This document shows positions 441 to 35,559 of a stretch of 64,000 nucleotides of DNA, piece by piece. How positions within the stretch are numbered: position 1 is the stretch's first letter; the number at the start of each line of letters is the position of its first letter. The stretch lies in sequence record OM362897.1; one strand, 5' to 3'. The position numbers and the translations under genes were made by a program. Under the pieces are notes generated by a model, which ran no database searches, was not told the DNA's origin, and worked only from the letters and a program-made list of their open reading frames with translations. The DNA is from Escherichia phage SKA64.

Positions 441-458
441 TTTGTTTTCCTCATTATC

Positions 459-476
459 GGCGGCACCATTGCCGCC
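459..476 (-). promoter_or_regulatory. PeSL-like 5' leader stem-loop
   Basis: GGCGGC-ACCATT-GCCGCC hairpin 20 nt upstream of ATG at 440. Confidence 0.55.
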
Positions 477-487
477 CTACGCATTAA

Positions 488-516
488 ATATAAATTATCT
501 AAGAGATTAGATCAAG
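488..516 (-). promoter_or_regulatory. sigma70-like promoter (minus strand)
   Basis: minus-strand TTGATC-N17-TATATT directly upstream of leader hairpin. Confidence 0.5.
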
Positions 517-518
517 GA

Positions 519-710
519 TTATTTTGTAAAGATTACAGCTTCATCAAAATTTTCAACATAGTAAGCAAGTTTTTCATTTGCTGCAACCAGTTGTAAAAGT
601 TGGTCGTAAGATAATCCATTGATCCCCTCTTCGTTGTTTAAAGCCTCGATGATTTCATCAACGGGCGCAAAAAACATGTTATTCGATTCCAGGTAGGTGA
701 TAGTTTTCAT
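519..710 (-). CDS. hypothetical protein (63 aa)
   Basis: ORF track; AAAGG RBS; own promoter-hairpin cassette. Confidence 0.55.
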   Translation of the reverse strand: MKTITYLESNNMFFAPVDEIIEALNNEEGINGLSYDQLLQLVAANEKLAYYVENFDEAVIFTK

Positions 711-732
711 AATGTTTTACCTTTTTCGGGGA

Positions 733-748
733 GCGGCACCATTGCCGC
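733..748 (-). promoter_or_regulatory. PeSL-like 5' leader stem-loop
   Basis: GCGGC-ACCATT-GCCGC hairpin upstream of ATG at 710. Confidence 0.55.
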
Positions 749-760
749 CCTACGTGGTAA

Positions 761-788
761 ATATTAGCACACTGGCGATCTGTGTCAA
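761..788 (-). promoter_or_regulatory. sigma70-like promoter (minus strand)
   Basis: minus-strand TTGACA-N16-TAATAT. Confidence 0.55.
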
Positions 789-794
789 TACTTT

Positions 795-1181
795 TTATTC
801 AATATAAATCAAATTATCTTCACCAATGTAAGCCGACACGTTCGGCATAAACTTAGCTGCATTGGTTAGGCGGTTCGCCGTGTTAGTGGTGTATATTTCA
901 GGGCGATCCCAAAAGCCTACGCCGTGACCGTTACGGGTAAAATGTAAATCATTCCCGATCTGGTTGGCTGTTGCGCCGTCGCTCATTGCCTCAGAGATAG
1001 CGGCAAGATTAGCATTAATAAAGGCTGTTACATCCTGGGCGATCCGTTCGTCCGCGCTAGGAGAAAAATCATAATCGTCTAAGTTATCAATAAAATTACC
1101 TTCATGATCCCTTGCTGATTCAGCAAAAATAAAGGCTTCTTTATAGCCGTTGATGATTTCAATAATGATTTCTGTTTTCAT
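795..1181 (-). CDS. hypothetical protein (128 aa)
   Basis: ORF track; AAAGAGAGA RBS-like sequence before ATG. Confidence 0.6.
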   Translation of the reverse strand: MKTEIIIEIINGYKEAFIFAESARDHEGNFIDNLDDYDFSPSADERIAQDVTAFINANLAAISEAMSDGATANQIGNDLHFTRNGHGVGFWDRPEIYTTNTANRLTNAAKFMPNVSAYIGEDNLIYIE

Positions 1182-1195
1182 GTTGTGTCTCTCTT

Positions 1196-1300
1196 TTAGC
1201 CGATACCGTGGGAAGATAGGATCATGTTAGCCATAGTTGCAACCACTCCAACCGATAACGCCAGGCCCACTACTACGACCGTGAAAATTTTCTCTAACAT
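1196..1300 (-). CDS. small hydrophobic peptide (34 aa, MLEKIFTVVVVGLALSVGVV...)
   Basis: hand-translated; GAGGG RBS 8 nt before ATG; below ORF-track size cutoff. Confidence 0.35.
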   Translation of the reverse strand: MLEKIFTVVVVGLALSVGVVATMANMILSSHGIG

Positions 1301-1318
1301 GATTCTACCCTCATTAAT

Positions 1319-1342
1319 GGGCGTTGCCTTATTGCCCCGCCC
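1319..1342 (-). promoter_or_regulatory. PeSL-like 5' leader stem-loop (variant)
   Basis: GGGCG...CGCCC inverted repeat preceded on minus strand by TTGACA-N16-TAGAAT. Confidence 0.4.
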
Positions 1343-1381
1343 TACGAAATACATTCTACCCGATTTATAATTGTTGTCAAA

Positions 1382-1651
1382 TTATTTTTTCAAGCTTGAC
1401 CACTCAAAACACGGGGCGATCTCGTTAAAACTTGTGCCCTGTAAAGCACATAATTTTTTAGCAATAGCCGCCGTGACCTGGCGCTGTACGCGCGGATCTG
1501 CTACTGATTGGAGAAAGTAGGCGGCTTTATATGTGATCATGCTTTCACCTGTTTCCTTGTTAACATGATGCACTATTTTAGCCTTATCATCTTTTACCAG
1601 GATGTAACCGGATTCGATGGCCTTGATTGCAACGTCTAATGATATTTTCAT
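1382..1651 (-). CDS. hypothetical protein (89 aa)
   Basis: ORF track; AAGAGG RBS. Confidence 0.6.
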   Translation of the reverse strand: MKISLDVAIKAIESGYILVKDDKAKIVHHVNKETGESMITYKAAYFLQSVADPRVQRQVTAAIAKKLCALQGTSFNEIAPCFEWSSLKK

Positions 1652-1670
1652 GATTTACCTCTTTATTGAC

Positions 1671-1691
1671 GGCGGGGAATACTCCCCCGCC
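1671..1691 (-). promoter_or_regulatory. PeSL-like 5' leader stem-loop
   Basis: GGCGGGG-AATACT-CCCCGCC hairpin upstream of ATG at 1651. Confidence 0.5.
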
Positions 1692-1698
1692 TCATTAA

Positions 1699-1869
1699 TT
1701 ATTCTTCATCGTCGCCGTTATAGTATTCAATGCCATTTTCATCGGTTACGGTGATGTTAACGCCACCGATAGCAACACGATCACGGGCAAACGTCATAGC
1801 TTCATTTAAATCTTCAGACCAAAAAATATTGTGACCTTTGCGCGATACATAAAACATAGTCGGGATCAT
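1699..1869 (-). CDS. hypothetical protein (56 aa)
   Basis: track ORF 1699..1953 trimmed to internal ATG (1867-1869) because the 5' extension translates the leader hairpin; AGAAGAGAAA RBS-like. Confidence 0.5.
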   Translation of the reverse strand: MIPTMFYVSRKGHNIFWSEDLNEAMTFARDRVAIGGVNITVTDENGIEYYNGDDEE

Positions 1870-1890
1870 GATTTGTTTCTCTTCTGTTGT

Positions 1891-1914
1891 GAGCGGTGGA
1901 CCATTCCGCCGCTC
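1891..1914 (-). promoter_or_regulatory. PeSL-like 5' leader stem-loop
   Basis: GAGCGGTGG-ACCATT-CCGCCGCTC hairpin. Confidence 0.5.
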
Positions 1915-1954
1915 TATGTAATAAACTTTACTACGTTGTTTGCCTACTGTCAAA

Positions 1955-2239
1955 TTATTTTTTAATGTTTTGCCCTACAAAATTGATCACTTCCTTAAGC
2001 TGTCTCTCTGTCATGATCGTACCTGGTAACTCTTCTTTAATTTCTTCTGGTAAATAGATATTACCGCGCCAGGTTAACAAACAACCGTTTTGATCTTCGC
2101 AGATAGAATAAGAAAACATCCACTCGCAATCATTCTCAAGCTCCCAAAAACACAAAAAGTCTTCTTTCCCTAAGTTTTCAACGGTTAAGCATAATCCGCG
2201 ACGTGCTGCATAATTAGTTAGGCTTTTTGTAATTTTCAT
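1955..2239 (-). CDS. hypothetical protein (94 aa)
   Basis: track ORF trimmed to ATG at 2237-2239 (upstream extension translates hairpin). Confidence 0.5.
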   Translation of the reverse strand: MKITKSLTNYAARRGLCLTVENLGKEDFLCFWELENDCEWMFSYSICEDQNGCLLTWRGNIYLPEEIKEELPGTIMTERQLKEVINFVGQNIKK

Positions 2240-2260
2240 GATTTTTCTCTCTTCTTGTGA

Positions 2261-2276
2261 GCGGCACCATTGCCGC
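2261..2276 (-). promoter_or_regulatory. PeSL-like 5' leader stem-loop
   Basis: GCGGC-ACCATT-GCCGC hairpin. Confidence 0.55.
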
Positions 2277-2288
2277 CCTACAAGATAC

Positions 2289-2316
2289 ATATTATCAGAC
2301 TACGCGGACTTGTCAA
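2289..2316 (-). promoter_or_regulatory. sigma70-like promoter (minus strand)
   Basis: minus-strand TTGACA-N16-TAATAT. Confidence 0.55.
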
Positions 2317-2317
2317 A

Positions 2318-2428
2318 CTATTTTTTCTTTTTCTTTGCTTCCAACCGTCTAAGGTTACGGCTTGACTTATTGCGCAAGGCGCTTAGATCGTCGTACCCTT
2401 TCCATGCTTGCATATCTTTCGGATTCAT
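2318..2428 (-). CDS. small lysine-rich basic peptide (36 aa, ends KKKKK)
   Basis: AAGGGGG RBS 5 nt before ATG; C-terminal part of track ORF 2318..2590. Confidence 0.35.
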   Translation of the reverse strand: MNPKDMQAWKGYDDLSALRNKSSRNLRRLEAKKKKK

Positions 2429-2438
2429 GTTATCCCCC

Positions 2439-2717
2439 TTAACGATTATAAACATTATGGATGGCTTCAAAGGCAAGATGACCATAAGCCGCCAAATCGG
2501 GATTGATCCAAGCGTTATCCAACATCGTTTCAAGGACTGTGGAATCATCGTATAAAGCATCATAGAAATCTGCACGGATGATCGTTTCAATGTCGTCCGG
2601 TGTTAGTTTGTCGTTCAACTTGCACACTGTTTCAACGTCAACACCAATTTTCCAATTTTGTAAATTAGTGGTTAACATTGTTTTCATTTCTTCGGTTGTT
2701 AATTTAACGATGGTCAT
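2439..2717 (-). CDS. hypothetical protein (92 aa)
   Basis: ORF track; AAGAGAGAAA RBS-like; own promoter-hairpin cassette. Confidence 0.6.
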   Translation of the reverse strand: MTIVKLTTEEMKTMLTTNLQNWKIGVDVETVCKLNDKLTPDDIETIIRADFYDALYDDSTVLETMLDNAWINPDLAAYGHLAFEAIHNVYNR

Positions 2718-2738
2718 GATTTTTTCTCTCTTCTGTTA

Positions 2739-2760
2739 GGCGGGGCGCTTGTCGCCCCTA
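2739..2760 (-). promoter_or_regulatory. PeSL-like 5' leader stem-loop
   Basis: GGGGCG-CTTGT-CGCCCC hairpin. Confidence 0.55.
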
Positions 2761-2768
2761 TGTGATAC

Positions 2769-2796
2769 ATCTTATCAGGTTGATTCAGCTTGTCAA
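2769..2796 (-). promoter_or_regulatory. sigma70-like promoter (minus strand)
   Basis: minus-strand TTGACA-N16-TAAGAT. Confidence 0.55.
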
Positions 2797-2797
2797 A

Positions 2798-2959
2798 CTA
2801 TTTGTTAGCCGGATTATATGCCAGGACCGCGCCGCTTGCTTTCACACTTTCCGCTTCATAGTTGCGCAGATCGTTTTCTGTAAGATTGAGCGCGATCACT
2901 TCCTCGACTTCAACGCCAGCGACAAGGGCGATCTCTTTGATAATGTCTGTTATTTTCAT
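2798..2959 (-). CDS. hypothetical protein (53 aa)
   Basis: track ORF trimmed to ATG at 2957-2959 with AAGGTG RBS. Confidence 0.5.
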   Translation of the reverse strand: MKITDIIKEIALVAGVEVEEVIALNLTENDLRNYEAESVKASGAVLAYNPANK

Positions 2960-2969
2960 GGTGTGCACC

Positions 2970-3089
2970 TTATAAGATGATTGATAAGATAGTGACAACG
3001 AAAGCGATTATACTGATGGCAAATGTCATCTTTTTACCTTCGGATACTGCCGGATTCTCTACCGTGTATTCTACTGTGTACTTGCTCAT
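2970..3089 (-). CDS. small membrane peptide (39 aa, ...FAISIIAFVVTILSIIL)
   Basis: hand-translated; GAGAGGA RBS; stop overlaps RBS of next gene; paralogous to 7448..7552. Confidence 0.45.
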   Translation of the reverse strand: MSKYTVEYTVENPAVSEGKKMTFAISIIAFVVTILSIIL

Positions 3090-3112
3090 CGTGTAATCCT
3101 CTCGTTTGCTTT

Positions 3113-3125
3113 GGGAACTATTCCC
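3113..3125 (-). promoter_or_regulatory. PeSL-like 5' leader stem-loop
   Basis: GGGAA-CTA-TTCCC hairpin; minus-strand TTGCAA-N16-TATATT upstream. Confidence 0.45.
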
Positions 3126-3186
3126 GCCGCCCTATGAATTAAATATACACTATCTCAAAATGATTGCAAGCCTTTTTCTAAATTAT

Positions 3187-3471
3187 TTATGCAGTAAACA
3201 AACCATCATTTACAACGGCGGCGATGATCTCCCGTGCCATTGATTCAGGGAAAGGGGCGCTATAGTCCTGGCTTGTCTCATCGGTATCAGTGATCCAATG
3301 ATAAGCTAACGAGTAAAAGCCTTTACTAACTGTTTTCAGTGAGATGATGATCACTCGGTCAAGCTTATTGGTGAATGTTGCCGTTAATGTGTTACCATCC
3401 TGCGTCATGTTGGACAAGTAAGCGGGATCATTAATCAGGGAAAACATTAGCACGGTGTTAGCTTTACTCAT
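3187..3471 (-). CDS. hypothetical protein (94 aa)
   Basis: track ORF 3187..3501 trimmed to ATG at 3469-3471 (GAGGA RBS); extension overlaps hairpin. Confidence 0.5.
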   Translation of the reverse strand: MSKANTVLMFSLINDPAYLSNMTQDGNTLTATFTNKLDRVIIISLKTVSKGFYSLAYHWITDTDETSQDYSAPFPESMAREIIAAVVNDGLFTA

Positions 3472-3490
3472 GATTGCATCCTCAAAGGGG

Positions 3491-3508
3491 CGCGGCACCA
3501 TTGCCGCC
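3491..3508 (-). promoter_or_regulatory. PeSL-like 5' leader stem-loop
   Basis: GCGGC-ACCATT-GCCGC hairpin. Confidence 0.55.
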
Positions 3509-3518
3509 CTACACGATA

Positions 3519-3546
3519 ACTATAACACAATATAAAACAGGATCAA
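3519..3546 (-). promoter_or_regulatory. sigma70-like promoter (minus strand)
   Basis: minus-strand TTGATC-N16-TATAGT. Confidence 0.5.
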
Positions 3547-3749
3547 CCTTTATTTTTCCACGGTGTCAGCTTGTTAATCATTGGTGATAAATAGCGTTTA
3601 CCAACGTAAAACAGCACGCCAACTGATGCAACGGCGGCGATCTCATGCATAGCCGACGGGAAACGGGTATCATAATAAGATCCAATAATAGCAATAGCGG
3701 CAACGGCTGCAACGTCGATAATGATTTTTTCTTGTTTTGCGGTGATCAT
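3543..3749 (-). CDS. small membrane protein (68 aa)
   Basis: track ORF trimmed to ATG at 3747-3749; hydrophobic stretches AAVAAIAIIG and AAVASVGVLFYVG. Confidence 0.5.
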   Translation of the reverse strand: MITAKQEKIIIDVAAVAAIAIIGSYYDTRFPSAMHEIAAVASVGVLFYVGKRYLSPMINKLTPWKNKG

Positions 3750-3771
3750 AATATTTACCTTTTTGTATGGT

Positions 3772-3788
3772 GGGGGAACTATTCCCCG
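3772..3788 (-). promoter_or_regulatory. PeSL-like 5' leader stem-loop
   Basis: GGGGAA-CTA-TTCCCC hairpin. Confidence 0.5.
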
Positions 3789-3835
3789 CCTGATGTAATA
3801 CAGTTTAACAGGTCCGGTTATGGTGTCAACCACTT

Positions 3836-4021
3836 TTAAAGATATTTTATACTGATAACGTTTTCCGGTTTAACCTTGTTGTGATGTGCATCAACATAGA
3901 TCAAACCATCGTCAGAAAAGCCCAGGATCACGCCCTGCGCGATAAAACCGTATTCGTCACGGTAACGCACGGCTATTTTTAATGTTGCGTTGTAGGCTGT
4001 TTTAAGCTCGTTTAAAGTCAT
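3836..4021 (-). CDS. hypothetical protein (61 aa)
   Basis: ORF track; GAGGA RBS. Confidence 0.55.
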   Translation of the reverse strand: MTLNELKTAYNATLKIAVRYRDEYGFIAQGVILGFSDDGLIYVDAHHNKVKPENVISIKYL

Positions 4022-4040
4022 TTTTGTTTATCCTCTACAT

Positions 4041-4069
4041 GTAAAAAGAAAGGGCGCTTGGTGCGCCCT
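4041..4069 (-). terminator. rho-independent terminator candidate (minus strand)
   Basis: AGGGCGC-TTGGT-GCGCCCT hairpin followed on minus strand by TTCTTTTTAC. Confidence 0.45.
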
Positions 4070-4076
4070 TGTTATG

Positions 4077-4223
4077 TTAATTCTCTAAATCCATCCAATT
4101 ATATTTGTCACTCTTCCCGCGCTTTGTTTTATTGCGCTTGTCGCCTTTGCGGATCACTTCCTCATTCCAGGCCTTGCGGATCTTGGAAGATTGAATTTTT
4201 TCTGCACGATTAGATGTATTCAT
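4077..4223 (-). CDS. small basic protein (48 aa, Lys/Arg-rich)
   Basis: hand-translated; AAAGAGGAAA RBS; followed by terminator-like hairpin. Confidence 0.4.
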   Translation of the reverse strand: MNTSNRAEKIQSSKIRKAWNEEVIRKGDKRNKTKRGKSDKYNWMDLEN

Positions 4224-4242
4224 TTTGTTTCCTCTTTATATG

Positions 4243-4260
4243 AGCGGCACCATTGCCGCT
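4243..4260 (-). promoter_or_regulatory. PeSL-like 5' leader stem-loop
   Basis: AGCGGC-ACCATT-GCCGCT hairpin; minus-strand TTGACA upstream at 4291-4296. Confidence 0.5.
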
Positions 4261-4302
4261 ATATTATTAATTTAAACTGTTTTGTAAAATTGTCAAGGTT
4301 TA

Positions 4303-4656
4303 TCATTCATAAGAGCAAGCAAGGATCACGCCTGCAATATAAAGCCAATAATTTTCCCTTTCTCGTTGGATTTTATCATCGCTGCTATTCTCTTTAATGT
4401 ATCCCCAGGATGTTAACAAGCGATCAATTTCCCAATATTCGAAAGCGATATTAATATCTGATGGCAAACCTTGTAACCATGATGCTATTGCTCTGATAAT
4501 GTTATGATCGTAACGTTTTTGGTTATCGGTATACCAATACTCGGATTTAAAACAGCGCATCAATTCCGCGATCTTCTCTTTATCTTCTGTGATGCCATAC
4601 TTGCTATAATCAATTGAGGCCAGAATATAAAGTTTAATTGCATTTTGTGCTTTCAT
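4303..4656 (-). CDS. hypothetical protein (117 aa)
   Basis: ORF track; AGAAGAGAGA RBS-like. Confidence 0.6.
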   Translation of the reverse strand: MKAQNAIKLYILASIDYSKYGITEDKEKIAELMRCFKSEYWYTDNQKRYDHNIIRAIASWLQGLPSDINIAFEYWEIDRLLTSWGYIKENSSDDKIQRERENYWLYIAGVILACSYE

Positions 4657-4677
4657 GGTGTCTCTCTTCTGTTGTTG

Positions 4678-4694
4678 GCGGCACCATTGCCGCC
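4678..4694 (-). promoter_or_regulatory. PeSL-like 5' leader stem-loop
   Basis: GGCGGC-ACCATT-GCCGCC hairpin. Confidence 0.55.
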
Positions 4695-4733
4695 CTACTT
4701 GTTACATCTTACTGGATTTTTAAAACTTGTCAA

Positions 4734-4955
4734 TCATTTTTCTACTATCATTTGATACCCTGTTTCAACGTTAGAAAACACTGTTATCCCGTCCTGGCGT
4801 TCACTCATTAACATACAAGGCGCTAACATCCTTTCTACTGCCTTGCACTCGTTGTAAACGGCGGTTATATCTCCTGCTGCCTTGTCTTCTGTAGTAAATG
4901 TCTCATTTACGTAAACTTGACCAGCGACAACGGCGACAATAGCGAAAGTGATCAT
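4734..4955 (-). CDS. hypothetical protein (73 aa, N-terminus MITFA)
   Basis: ORF track; AAGGAAA RBS; first 18 nt identical to start of 5029..5196. Confidence 0.55.
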   Translation of the reverse strand: MITFAIVAVVAGQVYVNETFTTEDKAAGDITAVYNECKAVERMLAPCMLMSERQDGITVFSNVETGYQMIVEK

Positions 4956-4989
4956 GATGTTTCCTTGTTAGTAGTGGTTTCTCTTCTCT

Positions 4990-5012
4990 ATAGCGCCCAT
5001 TATAGGCGCTAT
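4990..5012 (-). promoter_or_regulatory. leader stem-loop (variant)
   Basis: AGCGCC-CATTAT-AGGCGCT hairpin upstream of 4955. Confidence 0.4.
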
Positions 5013-5028
5013 AACGAAAAGTCAACTA

Positions 5029-5196
5029 TTATTTTTTAAGGCTTAAAGTGCCTAGCTTATCAGCGTGACGCAGACCAGGGAAGATCCATTTTCCTGATTC
5101 ATCTTTCACCGGGGCTTTAAAAGTAGCGCCCAGGTTGGCGGCGTTAACTTTACGTGCAACGTTGCGAGCGGCTTCACGGGTAGCGAAAGTGATCAT
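5029..5196 (-). CDS. hypothetical protein (55 aa, N-terminus MITFATREAA)
   Basis: hand-translated; GAGGAAAA RBS; below ORF-track cutoff. Confidence 0.45.
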   Translation of the reverse strand: MITFATREAARNVARKVNAANLGATFKAPVKDESGKWIFPGLRHADKLGTLSLKK

Positions 5197-5220
5197 GATA
5201 TTTTCCTCTTCTCTTTGTTA

Positions 5221-5242
5221 GGCGGTGGACCATTCCGCCGCC
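5221..5242 (-). promoter_or_regulatory. PeSL-like 5' leader stem-loop
   Basis: GGCGGTGG-ACCATT-CCGCCGCC hairpin. Confidence 0.5.
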
Positions 5243-5288
5243 TTGATGTAATACAGTTTACTTTATTTTTGCAGTATTGCAAGCGGTT

Positions 5289-5504
5289 TTATGAAATAAA
5301 TGTCAAAGTAAAATCATAATCTTTTGACAGTTTATATTGCACCTTGTTACCGTATATGTCACCTTTACGTAAAGATCCACGGATACCGATAACATCCTTC
5401 ACGTCTTTTAAATTTTTCACGCCTGTAATGTCTTTGTTGAAATACTCGTCATCTGAAAATAAAACTTGCTTTGCATTTTTTAACAAGGTGCGGATATTAG
5501 CCAT
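5289..5504 (-). CDS. hypothetical protein (71 aa)
   Basis: track ORF trimmed to ATG at 5502-5504. Confidence 0.5.
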   Translation of the reverse strand: MANIRTLLKNAKQVLFSDDEYFNKDITGVKNLKDVKDVIGIRGSLRKGDIYGNKVQYKLSKDYDFTLTFIS

Positions 5505-5525
5505 TTTGATAATCTCTCTTACTAG

Positions 5526-5545
5526 GGGCGGCAATAGTGCCGCCC
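5526..5545 (-). promoter_or_regulatory. PeSL-like 5' leader stem-loop
   Basis: GGGCGGC-AATAGT-GCCGCCC hairpin. Confidence 0.5.
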
Positions 5546-5591
5546 TATGAATTACATTTTACTAATTTTAGTTGTCTTGTCAATATTATTT

Positions 5592-5819
5592 TTAGTTTAA
5601 TTGATCCAGGCATAACAGACGATCAACGTTGAGATCGGTCAGGCTAATCGTTGGCACCTGGTAGGATTCGATGTACTCAACGCTCGACCATTGCCCAAAG
5701 TTAGCGACCGCCCAGCTATTCAATGAGGAGTGAAGATCATCCCCTTTCTTCTCGGTGATAACTGCTACTACCTGGGAGATTCCAACCGTGCCGGATACGC
5801 GAACAATAACGATAGCCAT
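5592..5819 (-). CDS. hypothetical protein (75 aa)
   Basis: ORF track; AAAGG RBS. Confidence 0.55.
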   Translation of the reverse strand: MAIVIVRVSGTVGISQVVAVITEKKGDDLHSSLNSWAVANFGQWSSVEYIESYQVPTISLTDLNVDRLLCLDQLN

Positions 5820-5841
5820 AATGATAACCTTTCTTTGATTT

Positions 5842-5862
5842 GGCGGGAAACCATTTCCCGCC
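5842..5862 (-). promoter_or_regulatory. PeSL-like 5' leader stem-loop
   Basis: GGCGGGAAA-CCA-TTTCCCGCC hairpin. Confidence 0.5.
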
Positions 5863-5910
5863 CTATGCGATAAACTACACCAGATTAAAAAACGTTGTCA
5901 ACTGCTTTTA

Positions 5911-6150
5911 TTACATTCCTACCATAGCGGCACGGATTGCAGTTTTACTATACTTGAAACCATCAGGTGTATGAGTGATTCCATCCTGTTTTAATCTGTA
6001 GCACATCAGATCCGCCGCTTTATCTTTATTGCCGCACTCATTTATTAAACCTACAGCGTATAAGTATAACGATTCATCATTATTAATCCAAAGGCTTACA
6101 TTCCAATGAGTTTTATTTTTGTGACCGTTGTACATTTTAGATTTAGCCAT
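5911..6150 (-). CDS. hypothetical protein (79 aa)
   Basis: ORF track. Confidence 0.55.
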   Translation of the reverse strand: MAKSKMYNGHKNKTHWNVSLWINNDESLYLYAVGLINECGNKDKAADLMCYRLKQDGITHTPDGFKYSKTAIRAAMVGM

Positions 6151-6171
6151 GATGTTAATCTCTTTTTCAGT

Positions 6172-6193
6172 GAGGCGGGAACTATTCCCGCTC
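6172..6193 (-). promoter_or_regulatory. PeSL-like 5' leader stem-loop
   Basis: GCGGGAA-CTA-TTCCCGC hairpin. Confidence 0.5.
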
Positions 6194-6238
6194 TCGATAT
6201 AAGTATTATATGCTTTTTATTCGTGCTGTCAATGCTTT

Positions 6239-6604
6239 TTATAAATCTTTTTTACGTTTTACATCGCTTGCATGACTGTATACAGCGATCCCATTATCAC
6301 GGCAAAAGCGGGAAAGGTAGGCATAATTTGAAAACTCTTTACCTTCCAGGTTGATAACCTTGCTAAACTCTTCTAGGGCGACGGTATCAAAATGATCACC
6401 ATAGCCATATTGAAACGGAACGTTAACCACCTCGATCAGTTTACCGCCGATCTCAACGTCAACCATTAAAGAAAAATATGTATTACCGTAGGACCGTTGA
6501 AACCAGCGACGGGCGCTAATATGCACCGCCTCAATGCTGGATAATTCAATTTTAGCCGTGTTAGCCAGGGTAGCATAAGCGGAAACATTAATATTAATAG
6601 CCAT
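6239..6604 (-). CDS. hypothetical protein (121 aa)
   Basis: track ORF; start moved to ATG at 6602-6604 which has AAAGG RBS. Confidence 0.5.
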   Translation of the reverse strand: MAININVSAYATLANTAKIELSSIEAVHISARRWFQRSYGNTYFSLMVDVEIGGKLIEVVNVPFQYGYGDHFDTVALEEFSKVINLEGKEFSNYAYLSRFCRDNGIAVYSHASDVKRKKDL

Positions 6605-6626
6605 GATGATAACCTTTTTCATTGTT

Positions 6627-6647
6627 GGCGGGAAACCACTTCCCGCC
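6627..6647 (-). promoter_or_regulatory. PeSL-like 5' leader stem-loop
   Basis: GGCGGGAA-ACCAC-TTCCCGCC hairpin. Confidence 0.5.
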
Positions 6648-6692
6648 CTATGTGGTAAACTATACTAGAATTTTAAACAATGTCAACCGTTT

Positions 6693-7055
6693 TTATTCGT
6701 AAATTTTACCGCTTTCAGCCCATACCATAACGCGGCGCATACTATCCCAAGTGTTTTGATCCAGGTTTAAGCCGTGCAACTCTTCGGTACTTTCCAGACC
6801 AGGTACCGCCTTGTTGTAAGTCGCATATAAGCGCCCTTGATACTCATACGCCAGAGTAAGATCCGTTTGAATCATCTTTTTAAGCATAGCATTAAGCATC
6901 ATATTAGCGGCATGTTGATCACGTTTTAGCGGTAACATATCAATAAAGGCGCGATAAGCTGAAACATGAATATCAACCGTTTCACGTGGTAAATTTTTCA
7001 TGTCATCGCGGAAAGATACCAGATTAAACATGATAGTATTGATTTGCTTGCTCAT
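6693..7055 (-). CDS. hypothetical protein (120 aa)
   Basis: track ORF trimmed to ATG at 7053-7055 with AAAGGG RBS. Confidence 0.5.
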   Translation of the reverse strand: MSKQINTIMFNLVSFRDDMKNLPRETVDIHVSAYRAFIDMLPLKRDQHAANMMLNAMLKKMIQTDLTLAYEYQGRLYATYNKAVPGLESTEELHGLNLDQNTWDSMRRVMVWAESGKIYE

Positions 7056-7076
7056 TGTGTTACCCTTTTTTGTTTT

Positions 7077-7098
7077 GGCGGGGAAGTATTCCACCGCC
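7077..7098 (-). promoter_or_regulatory. PeSL-like 5' leader stem-loop
   Basis: GGCGGGGAA-GTA-TTCCACCGCC hairpin. Confidence 0.5.
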
Positions 7099-7155
7099 CT
7101 ATGTGTTACATCTTATCAGATTAAAAAACGTTGTCAAGAATATTTTTAGATAATT

Positions 7156-7437
7156 TTAACTGTATGATCCACATCGTTCGCAGTAGTGATCATCGTCGTC
7201 ATCAGCTACCTGGCTGATAAAGTGATCTACTTTTGCTTTTAGGTTATTATAATTATTTTCTACTTCCTTTAATCGCTCCTGATAGTATCCCAGGGCTTCA
7301 ATATACGCCGCCTCTTCTGTTTTTTCACGCATGGCTAAATTCATGCCGCGCGTATCATCATACAGCCAAAAACCATCGGTGCACTCACTCATTGAAAGGG
7401 TAGGGCTTAACTCTTTATGATTAATTACCTTGCTCAT
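7156..7437 (-). CDS. hypothetical protein (93 aa, C-terminal CERCGSYS)
   Basis: track ORF trimmed to ATG at 7435-7437 with AAGG RBS. Confidence 0.5.
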   Translation of the reverse strand: MSKVINHKELSPTLSMSECTDGFWLYDDTRGMNLAMREKTEEAAYIEALGYYQERLKEVENNYNNLKAKVDHFISQVADDDDDHYCERCGSYS

Positions 7438-7447
7438 AGTGTGCGCC

Positions 7448-7552
7448 TTATAGAATGATTGAAACAACAATTGCTACAGTGATCCACACTGGAACGGCTA
7501 ACAAAATAGCGTTAATCGTTCCAACCGTCAAACTATTTTCTTTATTAATCAT
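7448..7552 (-). CDS. small membrane peptide (34 aa, ...VWITVAIVVSIIL)
   Basis: hand-translated; AGAGG RBS; paralog of 2970..3089 with the same downstream junction. Confidence 0.45.
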   Translation of the reverse strand: MINKENSLTVGTINAILLAVPVWITVAIVVSIIL

Positions 7553-7579
7553 TGTAAGCCTCTTGCATAATTTCACTAT

Positions 7580-7599
7580 GAGCGGCACCATTGCCGCCC
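7580..7599 (-). promoter_or_regulatory. PeSL-like 5' leader stem-loop
   Basis: GCGGC-ACCATT-GCCGC hairpin. Confidence 0.55.
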
Positions 7600-7634
7600 T
7601 ACGTGGTAAATATTATGCCAGTGGCGGCGATATG

Positions 7635-8192
7635 TCAAAGACTATTTTCAAAGTTTTCTAGTGCGATCCTTTTTTCTTCCTCTGTTGGCTGATAATCAGG
7701 AAAAGCATCAACACACAACAACGGCGGGATCTCTTCGTACTCTTCCTCTTCCGTTGTCTCCTCGTCTTCCTCCTGGGCTATGGCTGCAATTTTGGCTAAT
7801 TTTCTTTCAGCTTGAATCAATTTACCATCAAGTACGTTTTTTGCCATATTGTAAGCGGTCCAGGTTATGCGCTTACTTTCTAATGCTTCCTCAAGCGCCG
7901 CTATCTTGCTGGGGTATTCATCCAGGACACGAAAAGCCGGATCAACTTTGTACAAAGGATTATCTTTCGCGCCGTCGCTCGCATCTTCCGCACTGGATAA
8001 ATCAGCGTTACCATTTGCCAGCCAGCCAGGGCGCACATAACGCGCTTTTACGTTGCCGTTACTACGTGCTAATCTGTTACCTATTTGCTCACCGCTATAT
8101 CCCGTGGATTCATCGATAAGATGATCGGTAATGATGCGCGGATCATCTGCTTCATGTTTTACCCAAGACTGGATCACATATTCGCGGCCCAT
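7635..8192 (-). CDS. hypothetical acidic protein (185 aa)
   Basis: ORF track; start set to ATG at 8190-8192 (AAGGTGG RBS 5 nt upstream); Glu/Asp-rich C-terminal region. Confidence 0.55.
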   Translation of the reverse strand: MGREYVIQSWVKHEADDPRIITDHLIDESTGYSGEQIGNRLARSNGNVKARYVRPGWLANGNADLSSAEDASDGAKDNPLYKVDPAFRVLDEYPSKIAALEEALESKRITWTAYNMAKNVLDGKLIQAERKLAKIAAIAQEEDEETTEEEEYEEIPPLLCVDAFPDYQPTEEEKRIALENFENSL

Positions 8193-8193
8193 A

Positions 8194-8451
8194 TTAACCA
8201 CCTTTTTTCAACAATTGGCATACTTTAAAAAGACTTGCTGAATCCTTGCAAGGGTAGAAAGATGTACGATAGTCACGTACGCCAACCTTGCGGATCTCGA
8301 TGTTCTCGCATGTTGTTTGATCAAAGATATTTATTTCATCATGCCCCCTTATATAAACATAGTGGGGATGTATTAACGCATATTTTGCTAATCTGTAAAA
8401 AGCGTTATCTTTGAACGCGATCACGTGACCTTTTAATTTGATGTAAAACAT
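8194..8451 (-). CDS. hypothetical protein (85 aa)
   Basis: ORF track; AAGGTGG RBS. Confidence 0.6.
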   Translation of the reverse strand: MFYIKLKGHVIAFKDNAFYRLAKYALIHPHYVYIRGHDEINIFDQTTCENIEIRKVGVRDYRTSFYPCKDSASLFKVCQLLKKGG

Positions 8452-8468
8452 TCTACCACCTTACAAAT

Positions 8469-8487
8469 AGCGGGAACTATTCCCGCT
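8469..8487 (-). promoter_or_regulatory. PeSL-like 5' leader stem-loop
   Basis: AGCGGGAA-CTA-TTCCCGCT hairpin. Confidence 0.5.
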
Positions 8488-8527
8488 TTATGTAACATAT
8501 TAACAAATTATTCGTTAATGTCAAGCC

Positions 8528-8800
8528 TTAAAGCAAAAACGCTACATCTTGCGCTTTTAGTGTAGTATCAACCATTTTCGGGCTTTTATAATCAACAAAG
8601 CGCGCGGTTTTTTCAATAGCGAAACCGAGATAATCTTGTTTATTGAATTTACATTCTTTCTTAAATGTTTCCCGCGCCACGGTGATCGCTGCGTCCAGGG
8701 ATAAACGCCCGTCAATGTTGATATTTGCGAAAGATCCGCCACCGCTCATAGGTTTACCAGTGGTGCCAGTTACGATCATTGTTGCGCTATATGATGCCAT
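8528..8800 (-). CDS. hypothetical protein (90 aa)
   Basis: ORF track; AAGAGAGAAA RBS-like. Confidence 0.55.
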   Translation of the reverse strand: MASYSATMIVTGTTGKPMSGGGSFANINIDGRLSLDAAITVARETFKKECKFNKQDYLGFAIEKTARFVDYKSPKMVDTTLKAQDVAFLL

Positions 8801-8821
8801 GATGATTTCTCTCTTCTGTTA

Positions 8822-8842
8822 GGCGGGGCGCTTGTCGCCCCT
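8822..8842 (-). promoter_or_regulatory. PeSL-like 5' leader stem-loop
   Basis: GGGGCG-CTTGT-CGCCCC hairpin, near-identical to copy at 2739-2760. Confidence 0.55.
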
Positions 8843-8884
8843 ATGTGATACATCTTATCAGGTTGTGGCTTGTTGTCAAGACTT

Positions 8885-9082
8885 TTATTCTATTCCTGCA
8901 ATCTGCTTAACGCGCTTGCATTTTGCAGTATGCTGATCTTCTGTAATTACTCCCATTTCTAACAGTGAATCAATGAAAGATAAAACCGTTTCATGATCAT
9001 CTTGGGGATGACTGAACTCAGTAAAACCGTTTACTATTACGTTGATTTGTCCAGCTTTCGCCACAATGTGCAATGTTGCCAT
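8885..9082 (-). CDS. hypothetical protein (65 aa)
   Basis: track ORF trimmed to ATG at 9080-9082 with GGAG RBS. Confidence 0.5.
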   Translation of the reverse strand: MATLHIVAKAGQINVIVNGFTEFSHPQDDHETVLSFIDSLLEMGVITEDQHTAKCKRVKQIAGIE

Positions 9083-9101
9083 GATCTTAACTCCAAATAG
9101 T

Positions 9102-9121
9102 GAGCGGCACCATTGCCGCCC
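9102..9121 (-). promoter_or_regulatory. PeSL-like 5' leader stem-loop
   Basis: GCGGC-ACCATT-GCCGC hairpin; minus-strand TTGACG-N17-TAATAT upstream. Confidence 0.55.
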
Positions 9122-9268
9122 TACGTGGTAAATATTATGCCGCCACCTGGCGAACGTCAACCACTTTTTCAATCTTTTTATTTTCTTTTTGCTTGCTATA
9201 TATAAAGGAAAGGGCTATCATCTTTCTACCGCGCCAACCAGGGCGCACAACAAAGAAAGGGCGACACC

Positions 9269-29445: not shown

Positions 29446-30265
29446 TCAAACTCAAATTTTTGCAAATAAATTTGATGACCTGGAAACTGCTACTTTTGAT
29501 ATCCAAGATTATTCAAAATTGAAATTTGGTAGTAACCAAGCTGCGCGTCGTATGGGTAAAGAATTGGCACTTCAGTTTTTTGCTCAAGTGGCAATGAAAC
29601 ATATTGGGGAACAATTTGTTATCATTCCTTCTCCTTACAACCATGTGCATAATGCTGCAACAATGATGACAGATCATTTTATTAATTACTTCAATATGTT
29701 GCAAGCACAATATGATCAAGGTCGTTCAGCAGAACTGGACATTATTCATCGTAAAGTTAGCTATATCAACGATTATGGTTTCTTGGATAAAGCTAGTCGT
29801 AAGAAACTTATTGATGGGGATACATTCTACTGTAACAAAGAATTCTGGGGTGATAAGAAGCTTGTGTTTATTGATGATGTAAATATCACTGGAACTCATG
29901 AAGACAAACTGATTGAGATCCTTGATGAAAATCAAGTTAAAAATGATGTTTACTTCTTGTATTTTGCAAAATACGAAGGTAATCAAGCAGATACCGAAGC
30001 TAAACTGAATTTTAATTATATTAATACACCAGAAGCGTTTGTTAAAATGATTAATGAAGAACGTGATGCACAGTGTCTTGTTCGTCCTATTAAGTATCTT
30101 ATGGGCCAAAATCACGAAGACTTCAAAATCATTCTTAGCCAATTACCACACTACTATGTAGAGCAACTTTTCTTCGGATGTTTGGGAGAAGGTTACAACC
30201 GAATTTCAAAGTATGCCGAAAACTTTGAATTCTTGGATCGTTACACAAAACAACACATTCTGTAA
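29438..30265 (+). CDS. phosphoribosyltransferase (type I PRTase fold)
   Basis: PRPP-binding motif KKLVFIDDVNITGT. Confidence 0.6.
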   Translation: MRNQTQIFANKFDDLETATFDIQDYSKLKFGSNQAARRMGKELALQFFAQVAMKHIGEQFVIIPSPYNHVHNAATMMTDHFINYFNMLQAQYDQGRSAELDIIHRKVSYINDYGFLDKASRKKLIDGDTFYCNKEFWGDKKLVFIDDVNITGTHEDKLIEILDENQVKNDVYFLYFAKYEGNQADTEAKLNFNYINTPEAFVKMINEERDAQCLVRPIKYLMGQNHEDFKIILSQLPHYYVEQLFFGCLGEGYNRISKYAENFEFLDRYTKQHIL

Positions 30266-30278
30266 TAAGGAGCTAAAA

Positions 30279-30752
30279 ATGCTTAAAATGAAAACAGGTA
30301 ATCTTATTGATGCCGCTAAAGCAGGTGAAGTAACTGTTATTGCTCATTGTTGCAATTGTATGTGTAATATGGGGGCAGGTATTGCCCCACAAATCAAACG
30401 AGCATTTCCTTACGCATATGCAGCAGACTTAGACACAATGGCTGGTGATCAAAGTAAACTAGGTTGTTTTAGTTTAGGGGTGCCAGACGAACAATCAGAT
30501 CCTTTGGTATATAATCTATACGGGCAGTATCGTTATGGATACAATGCTAAAGGTCGTCAGTTGGACTATGATGCACTTTACGATGCACTAATAGCTATGG
30601 CTAACGATTTGCTTCTCCGTGACCAAAAATGTAAGATCGGCTTACCTATGATTGGCGCTGGATATGCTGGAGGTAATTGGGCTATCATCCAAGTGATGAT
30701 TGAAGAAACTTTAGTAAAAACAGGTCACGATGTGACTATTTATAAACTTTAA
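30279..30752 (+). CDS. macro-domain protein (ADP-ribose binding/processing)
   Basis: start at ATG 30279 after TAAGGAG; N-terminal segment NLIDAAKAGEVTVIAHCCNCMCNMGAGIAPQI and C-terminal LPMIGAGYAGGNW resemble macro-domain signatures. Confidence 0.5.
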   Translation: MLKMKTGNLIDAAKAGEVTVIAHCCNCMCNMGAGIAPQIKRAFPYAYAADLDTMAGDQSKLGCFSLGVPDEQSDPLVYNLYGQYRYGYNAKGRQLDYDALYDALIAMANDLLLRDQKCKIGLPMIGAGYAGGNWAIIQVMIEETLVKTGHDVTIYKL

Positions 30753-30764
30753 GAGGAGATTAGT

Positions 30765-30986
30765 ATGGGTGTTTTTGCAGGTATTGTTGCAGTGGTAAGC
30801 TTTTTTGTTATTGCTTTTATGCTTAGTTTGATTCCAGCTTGGTTACTGTTGCTGGCTTACAACTATGTTGCTGAAGTTATGGGTCATGCAGATATCACTG
30901 TCCCAGTAACCTTCTGGACCGTGGTTTGTGTTTCGTTTATTCTGGCTGTATTACGAGGAATCTTTTCCTCTCATTCAACAAAATAA
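30765..30986 (+). CDS. small membrane protein (73 aa)
   Basis: ORF track; GAGGAGA RBS; two hydrophobic helices. Confidence 0.6.
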   Translation: MGVFAGIVAVVSFFVIAFMLSLIPAWLLLLAYNYVAEVMGHADITVPVTFWTVVCVSFILAVLRGIFSSHSTK

Positions 30987-30989
30987 GTG

Positions 30990-31017
30990 TTGACATAGTT
31001 CTTAAAAAGAGTAAGAT
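30990..31017 (+). promoter_or_regulatory. sigma70-like promoter
   Basis: TTGACA-N16-TAAGAT. Confidence 0.6.
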
Positions 31018-31029
31018 ATATCACATGAA

Positions 31030-31048
31030 GCGGGGAATAGTTCCCCGC
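31030..31048 (+). promoter_or_regulatory. PeSL-like 5' leader stem-loop (only plus-strand copy)
   Basis: GCGGGGAA-TAG-TTCCCCGC between promoter and AGAGGAGAAAAG RBS. Confidence 0.55.
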
Positions 31049-31065
31049 AAAGAGAGGAGAAAAGA

Positions 31066-32040
31066 ATGCAACTTGGTTTCCCCATTATTGATGTAGTTGT
31101 TTTAGTTGGTATTTTAGCATTGTCTATTGGTATCGATTTCTTTGGTCACAAAGAAAATAAAGAAATTTCATTCAAATCCGCAGTTGATTGGTCGATCTTT
31201 TGGATTGGTGTATCATTAGCTTATTATGGTTTTGTATACTTCCAACATGGTGCCGATTTTGCTAACTTGTTTTTAAGTGGATATGTGTTGGAAAAATCTT
31301 TGTCGGTAGATAACTTAGTAGTATTTGTAGCAGTATTCGCAAGTTTTGGTATTAAAAGCACACACTTGCAGCACAAGATTCTACTTTGGGGTATTGCAGG
31401 TGCGATTGTCTTCCGAGGTGTGTTTGTAGCAGTAGGCACTTACTTGTTAAGTTTGGGCTGGTATGTTAATATCTTCTTCGGTGCGGTCATCCTTTTCTGT
31501 GCAGCTAAAATGGTATTTGCTGGAGATAATGACGCAGAAGTTGATTACTCTAAACACTGGGCTACCCGTATTGTTCGTAAACTGTTCCCTGTATCTAATA
31601 AAATGGATGGGGAGAAGTTCTTCACAATCGAAAATGGTGTTCGTGTAGCAACTCCAGCTTTGGTTTGCGTATTCGTGATGGAAATGGTGGATGTAATCTT
31701 TGCAGTAGATTCGGTTCCAGCGGTGATCGCAGTGACACAAGAACCCCTACTTGTATTCTCTTCGATGTTATGTGCAATCTTAGGTCTACGTGCTCTGTTC
31801 TTTGTTCTTAGTGTCGCACTGAAGTATCTGGTTCACTTGGAGAAAGCAGTTATTGTGGTTCTGGTGTTTGTAGGCGTTAAACTGATGTATCACCCGTTTG
31901 CAGAAACATTGCATGAGAAAATGAGTTTCCTGCCAGCACATATTGATCCAACTATTAGTATGTATATCGTGCTTGGTACTTTGGCCCTTGGTGTTATTGC
32001 AAGCTTTATCTTCCCTGAAAAAGAAGAAGCTACTATTTAA
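31066..32040 (+). CDS. TerC/Alx-family integral membrane protein
   Basis: multi-pass membrane protein; LSGYVLEKSLSVDNLVVFVAVF and FGAVILFCAAKMVFAGD blocks resemble TerC/Alx family. Confidence 0.8.
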   Translation: MQLGFPIIDVVVLVGILALSIGIDFFGHKENKEISFKSAVDWSIFWIGVSLAYYGFVYFQHGADFANLFLSGYVLEKSLSVDNLVVFVAVFASFGIKSTHLQHKILLWGIAGAIVFRGVFVAVGTYLLSLGWYVNIFFGAVILFCAAKMVFAGDNDAEVDYSKHWATRIVRKLFPVSNKMDGEKFFTIENGVRVATPALVCVFVMEMVDVIFAVDSVPAVIAVTQEPLLVFSSMLCAILGLRALFFVLSVALKYLVHLEKAVIVVLVFVGVKLMYHPFAETLHEKMSFLPAHIDPTISMYIVLGTLALGVIASFIFPEKEEATI

Positions 32041-32045
32041 TAAAT

Positions 32046-32070
32046 GAGCCTCCTTCGGGAGGCTATTTTA
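32046..32070 (+). terminator. rho-independent terminator
   Basis: AGCCTCC-TTCG-GGAGGCT followed by ATTTTAT. Confidence 0.65.
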
Positions 32071-32082
32071 TAGGAGAGACTT

Positions 32083-33054: not shown

Positions 33055-33068
33055 TAAGGAGAAAAACA

Positions 33069-33662: not shown

Positions 33663-33665
33663 GTT

Positions 33666-35365: not shown

Positions 35366-35559
35366 GAATCCGTATCTATATAATTGATGAAGACATTGGT
35401 GTCCGTTATGATGACGAAAAACGATTCGCACCGATGGGAGGCATATATCCCCCAAGTGTTCTAGCAGTTTGTCGTGATTGTTATATTTATGAAGGTTGTC
35501 GTAACTTCCGTAAATTCGAACTCCTTGCAGATATTGACTTCAATGAGGAGGAGGAGTAA
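35362..35559 (+). CDS. hypothetical protein (65 aa)
   Basis: ORF track; overlapping start/stop. Confidence 0.5.
   Translation: MRIRIYIIDEDIGVRYDDEKRFAPMGGIYPPSVLAVCRDCYIYEGCRNFRKFELLADIDFNEEEE

Follow-up and report, generated by a model that had tools for sequence, protein, structure and literature searches.

The TerC gene of Escherichia phage SKA64 is preceded, on the plus strand, by a compact promoter-hairpin cassette with the same architecture as the cassettes that crowd the minus-strand early region of this phage. On balance, we regard this segment (30990-31065) as belonging genuinely, and by vertical descent, to a phage-specific family of expression cassettes. The best overall explanation, which we accept with slightly more confidence than doubt, joins an early-firing inherited cassette to an autonomous TerC transcription unit, with a stabilising hairpin at the 5' end of the mRNA and an early burst of TerC as the outcome. 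The cassette is an ordinary kind of regulatory element, and its association with TerC is a real, conserved and well-supported regulatory detail that offers a testable mechanism rather than opening a long-standing question.

The TerC cassette and the early-block family

The window (the whole stretch of 64,000 nucleotides from sequence record OM362897.1 that was analysed here) contains, at 30000-33000, a region that matches 127 phage records and is 99.1% identical to Escherichia phage tuntematon, a myovirus of about 150 kb (Phapecoctavirus, Stephanstirmvirinae; the phAPEC8/phi92 group), in which window position x corresponds approximately to x+8277. On direct reading, the TerC cassette consists of TTGACA-N16-TAAGAT, 12 nt, an 8-bp hairpin, AGGAG and the start codon, and occupies 30990-31065 of the plus strand with the ATG at 31066, exactly as the first-pass annotation had placed and described it. 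The features considered here are collected in Table 1. The stop codon of an upstream 73-aa ORF (30984-30986) falls inside the A-rich stretch ahead of the -35 element; similar A-rich stretches precede the -35 elements of the early cassettes, and in both settings they are possibly UP-element-like in function.

Table 1. Coordinates of the TerC cassette, the early-block copies and the surrounding module in the window
Feature	Position	Strand	Description
Early block with paralogous cassettes	456..9160	-	20 strong copies, each ahead of a small ORF of unknown function
Strong copies 1-10, low coordinates	456, 729, 1320, 1892, 2257, 2737, 3488, 3769, 4240, 4674	-	
Strong copies 11-20, low coordinates	5221, 5524, 5842, 6172, 6627, 7077, 7578, 8467, 8820, 9100	-	
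HAD-like hydrolase	28789-29445	+	Weak match
PRTase_3	29438-30265	+	Ter-like module neighbour
Macro	30213-30752	+	Ter-like module neighbour
A-rich stretch caacaaaaTAAgtg	30976..30989	+	Upstream of -35; direct reading
Sigma-70-type promoter	30990..31017	+	-35 TTGACA 30990-30995, 16-nt spacer, -10 TAAGAT 31012-31017; 10/12 consensus matches
Initial transcribed region ATATCACATGAA (12 nt)	31018..31029	+	Between -10 and hairpin
Leader hairpin GCGGGGAA-TAG-TTCCCCGC (RNA GCGGGGAA-uag-UUCCCCGC)	31030..31048	+	8 perfect pairs, 3-nt loop
Purine-rich Shine-Dalgarno region GAGAGGAG	31052..31065	+	AGGAG 31055-31059, 6-nt spacer to ATG; direct reading
TerC-family integral membrane protein gene	31066..32040	+	324 aa; Pfam PF03741, E 9.9e-39, 133.3 bits (cut-off 27.8)
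Intrinsic terminator AGCCUCC-uucg-GGAGGCU + AUUUUAU	32047..32071	+	Six nt past TerC stop; terminator scan
SprT-like	33666-34256	+	Ter-like module neighbour
TelA	34253-35365	+	Ter-like module neighbour
vWA-TerF-like	36959-37753	+	Ter-like module neighbour

The early cassettes, on the minus strand within 1-9200, follow a common plan: TTGACA-N16-18-TAnnnT, about 10 nt, a GC-rich hairpin, a purine-rich Shine-Dalgarno (SD) sequence and ATG. The early block is truncated at its left by the edge of the window. A covariance model (R1) was built from 19 aligned minus-strand cassettes, with the TerC copy left out, and searched against the window and the 150 kb of tuntematon. This model recovered the TerC site at full length (30990-31049 on the plus strand, model positions 1-60 of 60) with 41.4 bits and an E-value of about 1e-7, compared with 44-65 bits for the seed copies and at most 17 bits for the background. 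The likeness to the minus-strand cassettes that was originally proposed is thus borne out, and it extends past the generic promoter consensus. One more copy from outside the seed (5221-5282, minus strand) scored 26 bits. The contention that TerC carries the only plus-strand copy also holds, both in the window and across the 150 kb of tuntematon: the next plus-strand match in the window (11.5 bits, E 2.3) covers the promoter part alone and lies 30 bits below the TerC site, and in tuntematon all strong matches fall at 7149-17426 on the minus strand, bar the TerC ortholog, with no strong R1 match in the other small-ORF regions of that genome and no further plus-strand match above 11.5 bits. An independent scan for perfect hairpins combined with promoters likewise found the TerC site as its sole plus-strand case, and an RNAfold-based scan yielded 17 minus-strand sites and one plus-strand site. 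A second plus-strand candidate, with a promoter at 42405 and a hairpin at 42458-42475, has a 24-nt gap between the two, lies within a coding sequence and scores 10.4 bits, and was rejected as a member of the family.

The early block indeed holds many cassettes, but their number is smaller than the roughly 24 initially reported: R1 gives 20 strong copies and a few degenerate or hairpin-only sites (9353-9406, 1671-1691, 117-132 and 4989-5013, the last with the hairpin over the -10 element). A PHROGs search with 20 ORFs returned unknown function throughout, including all 10 early-block ORFs searched, with no Srd-like or other RNA- or RNase-directed factor that might account for a need to protect 5' ends, and labelling the early-block ORFs as host-takeover genes is an assumption. 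The 10 nt that follow the early-copy stems contain, on average, 1.1 T. Most early-copy loops are AUGG, AUAG or GUGG (xUxG), some are unrelated (ACAAG, CUAU, AUAC), and the 5' junction YRUAGGG is conserved. Beyond the window, a search with the early-type cassette hit 553 places in 147 records, including phi92 and phages of about 138 kb that we take, from their names and genome sizes, to be rV5-like.

The TerC copy shares with the early copies the 16-nt spacer, TAAGAT, the sequence ATATCACAT (family form GTATCACAT), a GCGG...AATAG...CCGC hairpin and the purine-rich SD. The gap between the -10 element and the hairpin is 12 nt, compared with mostly 9-11 nt in the early copies, and the hairpin ends 17 nt from the ATG, compared with 13-24 nt. 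Two features common among the early copies are missing, namely, the YRTAGGG junction, which in the TerC copy reads CATGAAG, and the TGn extended -10, where GAG stands ahead of TAAGAT. Identical regulation of TerC and the early genes is therefore not guaranteed.

The -35 element and the TA...T of the -10 element are invariant across eight orthologous TerC leaders, and the site orthologous to the TerC promoter is already annotated as a promoter in GenBank MZ726793. The class TTGACA-N15-18-TAnnnT occurs 35 times in the window, against an expectation of 5.0 +/- 2.3. Other near-consensus sigma-70 promoters on the plus strand (16662, 18732, 37910, 45433 and 50557) have no hairpins, so that early transcription by the host polymerase would not be special to TerC; only the hairpin is. 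From the usual spacing of sigma-70 start sites, the TerC transcript is predicted to start around A31025, 7-8 nt past the -10 element, and a purine occupies the matching position of the family consensus GTATCAC(A/G)TAGG. A leaderless upstream ORF of 23 codons could begin with the AUG at 31025, out of frame with TerC, and is probably due to chance; this ATG is confined to the window/ukendt and L005/ASO2A lineages and is absent in muut, Tr1 and KP2025.

The leader hairpin and its covariation

The hairpin has a predicted stability of about -14.6 kcal/mol. The whole TerC leader folds with a minimum free energy (MFE) of -14.7 (z -2.1), a modest excess of stability given that 9 of 200 shuffled sequences fold equally well. 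Between the hairpin and the ATG, the sequence reads AAAGAGAGGAG (also read as AAAGAGAGGAGAAAAGA). The centroid structure leaves the SD region unpaired, and the MFE structure shows weak pairing of 31056-31059 with the beginning of the ORF. In MZ726793, the orthologous hairpin is labelled a 'rho-independent terminator (WebGeSTer)'. We reject this reading because there is no U-tract after the hairpin (the tail is AAAGAGAGG / AAAGAGAGGA), and an efficient terminator 3' of its own promoter would abort the transcripts of that promoter. The terminator scan did not call the TerC hairpin, and the same scan called the one at 32047-32064. Most likely, the hairpin acts within the 5' leader as an RNA element and not as a terminator; the same is probably true of the 'rho-independent terminators' that annotation pipelines place directly 3' of promoters in these genomes. 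Searches of Rfam gave no matches at the gathering threshold in the whole window and, at a relaxed threshold in 30850-31200, a best match of 19.5 bits (gathering threshold 40) to an unrelated family, which rules out riboswitches and the known leader families. A lambda-type nut site was also rejected: 31018-31065 contains no boxA-like (CGCTCTTA-like) sequence, and the loop is UAG/AAUAGU, not a GNRA-like pentaloop.

Promoter and hairpin precede TerC in all three lineages tested (Phapecoctavirus, Justusliebigvirus, and the Klebsiella/Citrobacter relatives). The ukendt genome encodes 17 early cassettes, with the TerC cassette on the opposite strand; muut (Justusliebigvirus) has 13 early cassettes and one ahead of TerC; and Klebsiella phage KP2025, whose TerC is 69% identical, carries GCGG-type early cassettes on one strand and the TerC cassette, with the hairpin GAGGGAG-auagg-CUCCCUC, on the other. 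The cassette is not universal: a contig with a TerC 60% identical (L010) has neither promoter nor hairpin. Altogether, 82 phage records contain the 86-nt TerC cassette, and in 57 of these the identity is 95% or higher.

A search of IMG/VR with TerC yielded six loci, and the phage GenBank collection was used instead. TerC leaders from eight phages and viral contigs were aligned in register; L003, L004 and L017 were analysed by model search alone. The orthologous stems fall into five types, GCGGGGAA, GCGGGGAG, GCGGAGG, GGGAGAG and GAGGGAG. Across the eight orthologs, 87.5% of the cells on the TerC helix are paired, against 72% in shuffles and 49-64% when the partners are slid; compensatory double changes occur at five of the 7-9 stem pairs, and seven core pairs are never broken. 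The same 7-bp helix was found independently by RNAalifold. None of the eight orthologs departs from U49 or G51 in the loop, and AGGAG is likewise invariant in all aligned sequences (n=8). The gap between the -10 element and the hairpin varies, being 8 nt in Tr1, L008 and KP2025 and 11 nt in L009.

The comparison of the window with ukendt reveals an allele swap. The flanks and the cassette are 97-100% identical (the cassette itself, 100%), whereas the interior of the ORF (approximately 31141-31980) is only 52-88% identical. The junctions of this swap (~31141 and ~31980) are inside the ORF, and a recombination junction at the cassette was accordingly rejected. The TerC cassette has accumulated its differences across genera step by step together with the gene and is therefore not a recent transfer.

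Candidate functions of the hairpin

In the mechanism that we favour, unmodified host RNA polymerase would fire the TerC promoter once the DNA enters the cell, in parallel with the roughly 20 early-block cassettes; the hairpin would keep the 5' end of the transcript structured and slow the attack of RppH and RNase E while leaving the SD free; and the outcome would be a high, early burst of TerC. Early timing is plausible, and it would suit the anti-superinfection role that has been proposed for Ter systems. Stabilisation of the 5' end is the function that we put forward for the hairpin among those considered, tentatively and with somewhat less than even confidence. Both RppH and RNase E require single-stranded 5' termini, and this requirement accounts for the stabilising effect of 5' structures (PMC3997798). 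Given the usual sigma-70 start spacing, the predicted unpaired 5' overhang is about 4-6 nt in the TerC copy of the window and 2-4 nt in most early copies; in the TerC orthologs of Tr1, L008 and KP2025, the 8-nt gap would place the hairpin at the very 5' end, with an overhang of 0-2 nt. In work from the Belasco laboratory, 4-6 unpaired 5' nucleotides are reportedly at or past the limit for 5'-end protection, and the predicted overhang of the TerC copy in the window may be too long to be ideal. Moreover, the invariance of U49 and G51 while the stem turns over points to sequence-specific recognition, not a purely physical block. Read-through from upstream is not blocked, and TerC expression may therefore be supplemented by the cassette rather than set by it.

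If it works as inferred, the cassette packs a promoter, a protective leader and an SD into about 75 bp, a compact and portable unit for strong, immediate expression in E. coli that phages of the phi92/phAPEC8/rV5 group reuse about 20 times. Its lone use outside the early block, ahead of TerC and kept across genera, would then mark TerC as needed at once, and fits the proposal of early-acting phage Ter systems, for example, against superinfection.

The hairpin could, alternatively, be an operator for a trans-acting RNA-binding factor, of phage or host origin, that acts jointly on all mRNAs carrying a cassette, for instance by shutting off or activating their translation at the early-to-middle switch, with TerC as the sole plus-strand gene in the early regulon. 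Protein-bound hairpins such as the MS2 operator and boxB typically combine a conserved loop with a covarying stem, and here U49 and G51 persist even though five stem pairs have changed on both sides; the prevalent early-copy loops and the conserved junction of the early copies are also compatible with a bound factor. However, the likeness of the paralogous loops may stem from common descent, and the family includes members with unrelated loops. The TerC copy itself lacks the UAGGG junction, the TerC stems of KP2025 and Tr1 are of a type unlike those of the early copies, and there is no candidate binding protein among the 20 ORFs scanned in PHROGs. We hold such an operator to be unlikely, if still credible. 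The specific version in which the xUxG leader hairpins are an address tag, by which an RNA-binding protein recognises the roughly 20 early mRNAs and TerC alone among plus-strand genes, appears distinctly unlikely. If true, it would tie a membrane component of the Ter system (superinfection, stress) to the early host-takeover programme through a hairpin-defined early regulon, of which there is no description for the rV5/phi92/phAPEC8 group.

By analogy with the promoter-early stem-loop (PeSL) cassettes of T4-type phages, the hairpin might terminate or attenuate transcription arriving from upstream and so shield TerC from it, and the cassette might mainly serve as a recombination module for gene shuffling. 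PeSL elements consist of an AT-rich region, a sigma-70 promoter, a stem-loop and an SD, and their stem-loops cut reporter expression like a strong terminator (PMC2839356); the WebGeSTer call and the differing cassette content of the early blocks of the window and tuntematon fit this picture. Nevertheless, the position of the hairpin 3' of its own promoter and the missing U-tract speak against termination, the one recombination event detected at TerC (the ukendt swap) left the cassette identical on both sides, and the stepwise divergence of cassette and gene leaves no sign of recent transfer, which makes this explanation quite improbable. It is very improbable that the palindrome works at the DNA level, whether as a cruciform or as an operator, at about +5 to +25, to which a dimeric repressor of early promoters would bind. 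The inverted repeat is perfect and so placed that a protein bound to it would block promoter escape, a DNA palindrome would be just as likely to show compensatory changes, and the sense strand is not enriched in G-U pairs (19 versus 16 in the antisense), a count that does not separate RNA structure from a DNA palindrome. Yet the half-sites vary (GCGGCA, GCGGGAA, GGGGCG, GCGGAGG, GGGAGAG, GAGGGAG) to a degree that a sequence-specific binder would not tolerate, and the arms are separated by anything from 3 to 7 nt, so that a sequence-specific DNA operator seems unlikely judging from the sequences. Furthermore, in 40 of the 52 unique leaders (the copies are not independent), the more stable fold is that of the sense strand, an asymmetry that weakly favours a sense RNA. 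Extremely improbable, finally, is the coincidence of an incidental promoter-like sequence with a chance palindrome, TerC being transcribed only within a long plus-strand operon. Between 28000 and 34000, promoter-like hexamer pairs as a class are indeed no more frequent than expected (14, versus 18.4 +/- 4.1 in shuffled sequence), but the strength of the R1 match, the retention of the promoter and the covarying hairpin down to 69% TerC identity and the dedicated terminator 3' of the gene all weigh against chance.

The TerC unit and related systems

In related phages, the gene is annotated as TerC, integral membrane protein, or alx. A U-tailed hairpin 3' of TerC is kept in all seven related loci examined, including L010, with compensatory changes in the stem, and the terminator is also annotated in MZ726793. 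With its own promoter and its own terminator, TerC is an autonomous promoter-gene-terminator unit. The initial statement that TerC is driven by the cassette promoter is incomplete: the scan found no terminator-like site on the plus strand in 29740-32047, and transcription of the upstream genes reading through into TerC is possible. The unit is embedded in a plus-strand Ter-like module that encodes HAD, PRTase, Macro, TerC, SprT, TelA and vWA-TerF proteins.

This module resembles the phage and plasmid Ter systems described by Iyer et al. 2021 (PMC7824862), with which it shares the HAD-like, PRTase, TerC, TelA and vWA-TerF components; those of phages are proposed to counter superinfecting phages. 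That survey lists jumbo phages and extends the idea, as a possibility, to certain related tailed phages of smaller size, whereas the present phage is one of about 150 kb. No TerD or TerB was detected in the present module, and Macro and SprT-like genes are interleaved. The literature searched contains no description of a dedicated TerC promoter-hairpin, and that searched on Stephanstirmvirinae contains neither a description of the cassette family nor transcript data; the rV5 genome paper lists 33 sigma-70 promoters, and its main text is silent on leader hairpins (PMC3606486).

The closest described analogue of the TerC and early cassettes is the PeSL family (Arbiol et al. 2010, PMC2839356; Comeau et al. 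2014, PMC4122927); the likeness is one of composite architecture, compared with the published description, and we do not claim sequence homology. Both are repeated intergenic units of 60-100 bp or so that combine AT-rich sequence and a consensus sigma-70 early promoter with a GC-rich stem-loop, an SD and a start codon, and both cluster ahead of small ORFans in a variable early region. The PeSL stem-loop, however, usually lies within the promoter core (between the -35 and -10 elements or over the -10 element) or ahead of it and terminates upstream transcription (PMC2839356), in contrast to the present hairpin, which is located 8-13 nt downstream of the -10 element, within the transcript, and has no U-tract. 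The TerC copy differs further in that it resides in a conserved module, not in a hyperplastic region, with no recombination junction at the cassette.

With respect to the arrangement of the leader, a stable hairpin at or near the mRNA 5' end with an accessible SD is also found in the stem-loops of the ompA and papA 5' untranslated regions, where such structures are established to work by hindering RppH and the 5' sensor of RNase E (PMC3997798). The T7 gene 10 leader is another example of a 5'-terminal stabilising stem-loop. Unlike these three stabilisers, the TerC leader has a predicted start with 4-6 unpaired 5' nucleotides, perhaps too many, and belongs to a multi-copy family with a conserved loop. 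The alx gene with its yybP-ykoY leader is, similarly, a TerC-family gene with a structured 5' leader, but the phage leader is only about 40 nt long, has no Rfam match at the gathering threshold and is not a riboswitch. TerC is also reminiscent of morons, in that it lies within a longer array of co-oriented genes and yet has a sigma-70 promoter and an intrinsic terminator to itself. Classical morons, however, are lysogenic-conversion genes of temperate phages, whereas this group of phages has been described as lytic and TerC is functionally part of the Ter module around it. The order of promoter and then hairpin is peculiar to TerC; other plus-strand sites have the terminator first and the promoter after it (38885, 45401).

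TerC and the surrounding genes

An allelic replacement is seen within the TerC ORF when the window is compared with the related phage ukendt (locus L015, about 5760-6600, minus strand). The two genomes are 97-100% identical in the flanks, the promoter-hairpin cassette, and both ends of the TerC gene (~75 nt at its 5' end and ~60 nt at its 3' end), and only 52-88% identical in the gene interior; the TerC proteins share 73% identity. As judged from these alignments, recombination within the conserved gene ends apparently swaps divergent TerC alleles.

TerC belongs to a group of phage-borne Ter-like genes located immediately downstream of NrdD/NrdG, and the gene content of this neighbourhood agrees with the component list of phage Ter systems (PMC7824862). 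A second near-consensus promoter, without a hairpin, lies ~450 nt 3' of the TerC terminator and could restart transcription for the downstream Ter genes. In the TerC leader, an AUG starts at A31025, the predicted start nucleotide of the transcript, and opens a frame of 23 codons that would be leaderless, is out of frame with TerC, and overlaps the TerC start. Because this ATG is common only to the closest lineages (ukendt and L005/ASO2A) and is missing from muut, Tr1, and KP2025, it is probably due to chance.

Features of the window
Feature	Position	Strand	Details
Family-type GC hairpin	117-132	-	GGGGCGgcaaCGCCCC, 5' of SD and ATG
Family-type GC hairpin	1671-1691	-	GGCGGGGgagtattCCCCGCC, 5' of SD and ATG
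PeSL-position promoter	4989-5025	-	TTGACT...TATAGCGCCtataatgGGCGCTATA, -10 inside hairpin loop
PeSL-position promoter	9538-9566	+	TTGACA-AAGCCCagggatcGGGCTT-TATACT, hairpin between -35 and -10
Non-coding stretch	about 9540-10340		~800 bp
GC-rich segment	9580-9790		apparently structured
Fur-box-like sequence	about 9797-9815		gagAATGATtATCATTtac, 15/19 to consensus
Fur-box-like sequence	about 9856-9874		gcgAATcATtATCATTtgc, 13/19 to consensus
AT-rich repeats	9920-10120		'ctttaaat'
NrdD/NrdG	25680-27961
Ter-like genes	28789-37753	+	HAD-like hydrolase, PRTase_3 (ComF-like), Macro, 73-aa membrane ORF, TerC, SprT-like, TelA, vWA-TerF-like
Leader reading frame	31025-31096	+	23 codons
Replaced TerC segment	31141-31980	+	versus ukendt
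Second promoter	32499-32527	+	TTGACA-17-TAAAGT

Hairpins in other arrangements and annotations

At two promoters, the hairpin occupies the classical position of the promoter-early stem-loop (PeSL) cassette. Two further hairpins of the family type have no recognisable promoter in front; therefore, such a hairpin can stand alone between co-transcribed genes.

In the public record of phage ASO2A (MZ726793.1), the leader hairpin at 1346-1374 of locus L018, directly 3' of an annotated promoter, is labelled 'rho-independent terminator predicted by WebGeSTer'. For this phage, 9 promoters versus 55 terminators were reported (PMC10612097). Similar calls may inflate the terminator totals of these genomes.

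A non-coding stretch between minus-strand gene blocks

Two minus-strand gene blocks are separated by a non-coding stretch in which the GC-rich segment is followed by two Fur-box-like sequences and then by the AT-rich repeats. Repeat regions are annotated at the counterpart of this stretch in the related phage tuntematon.
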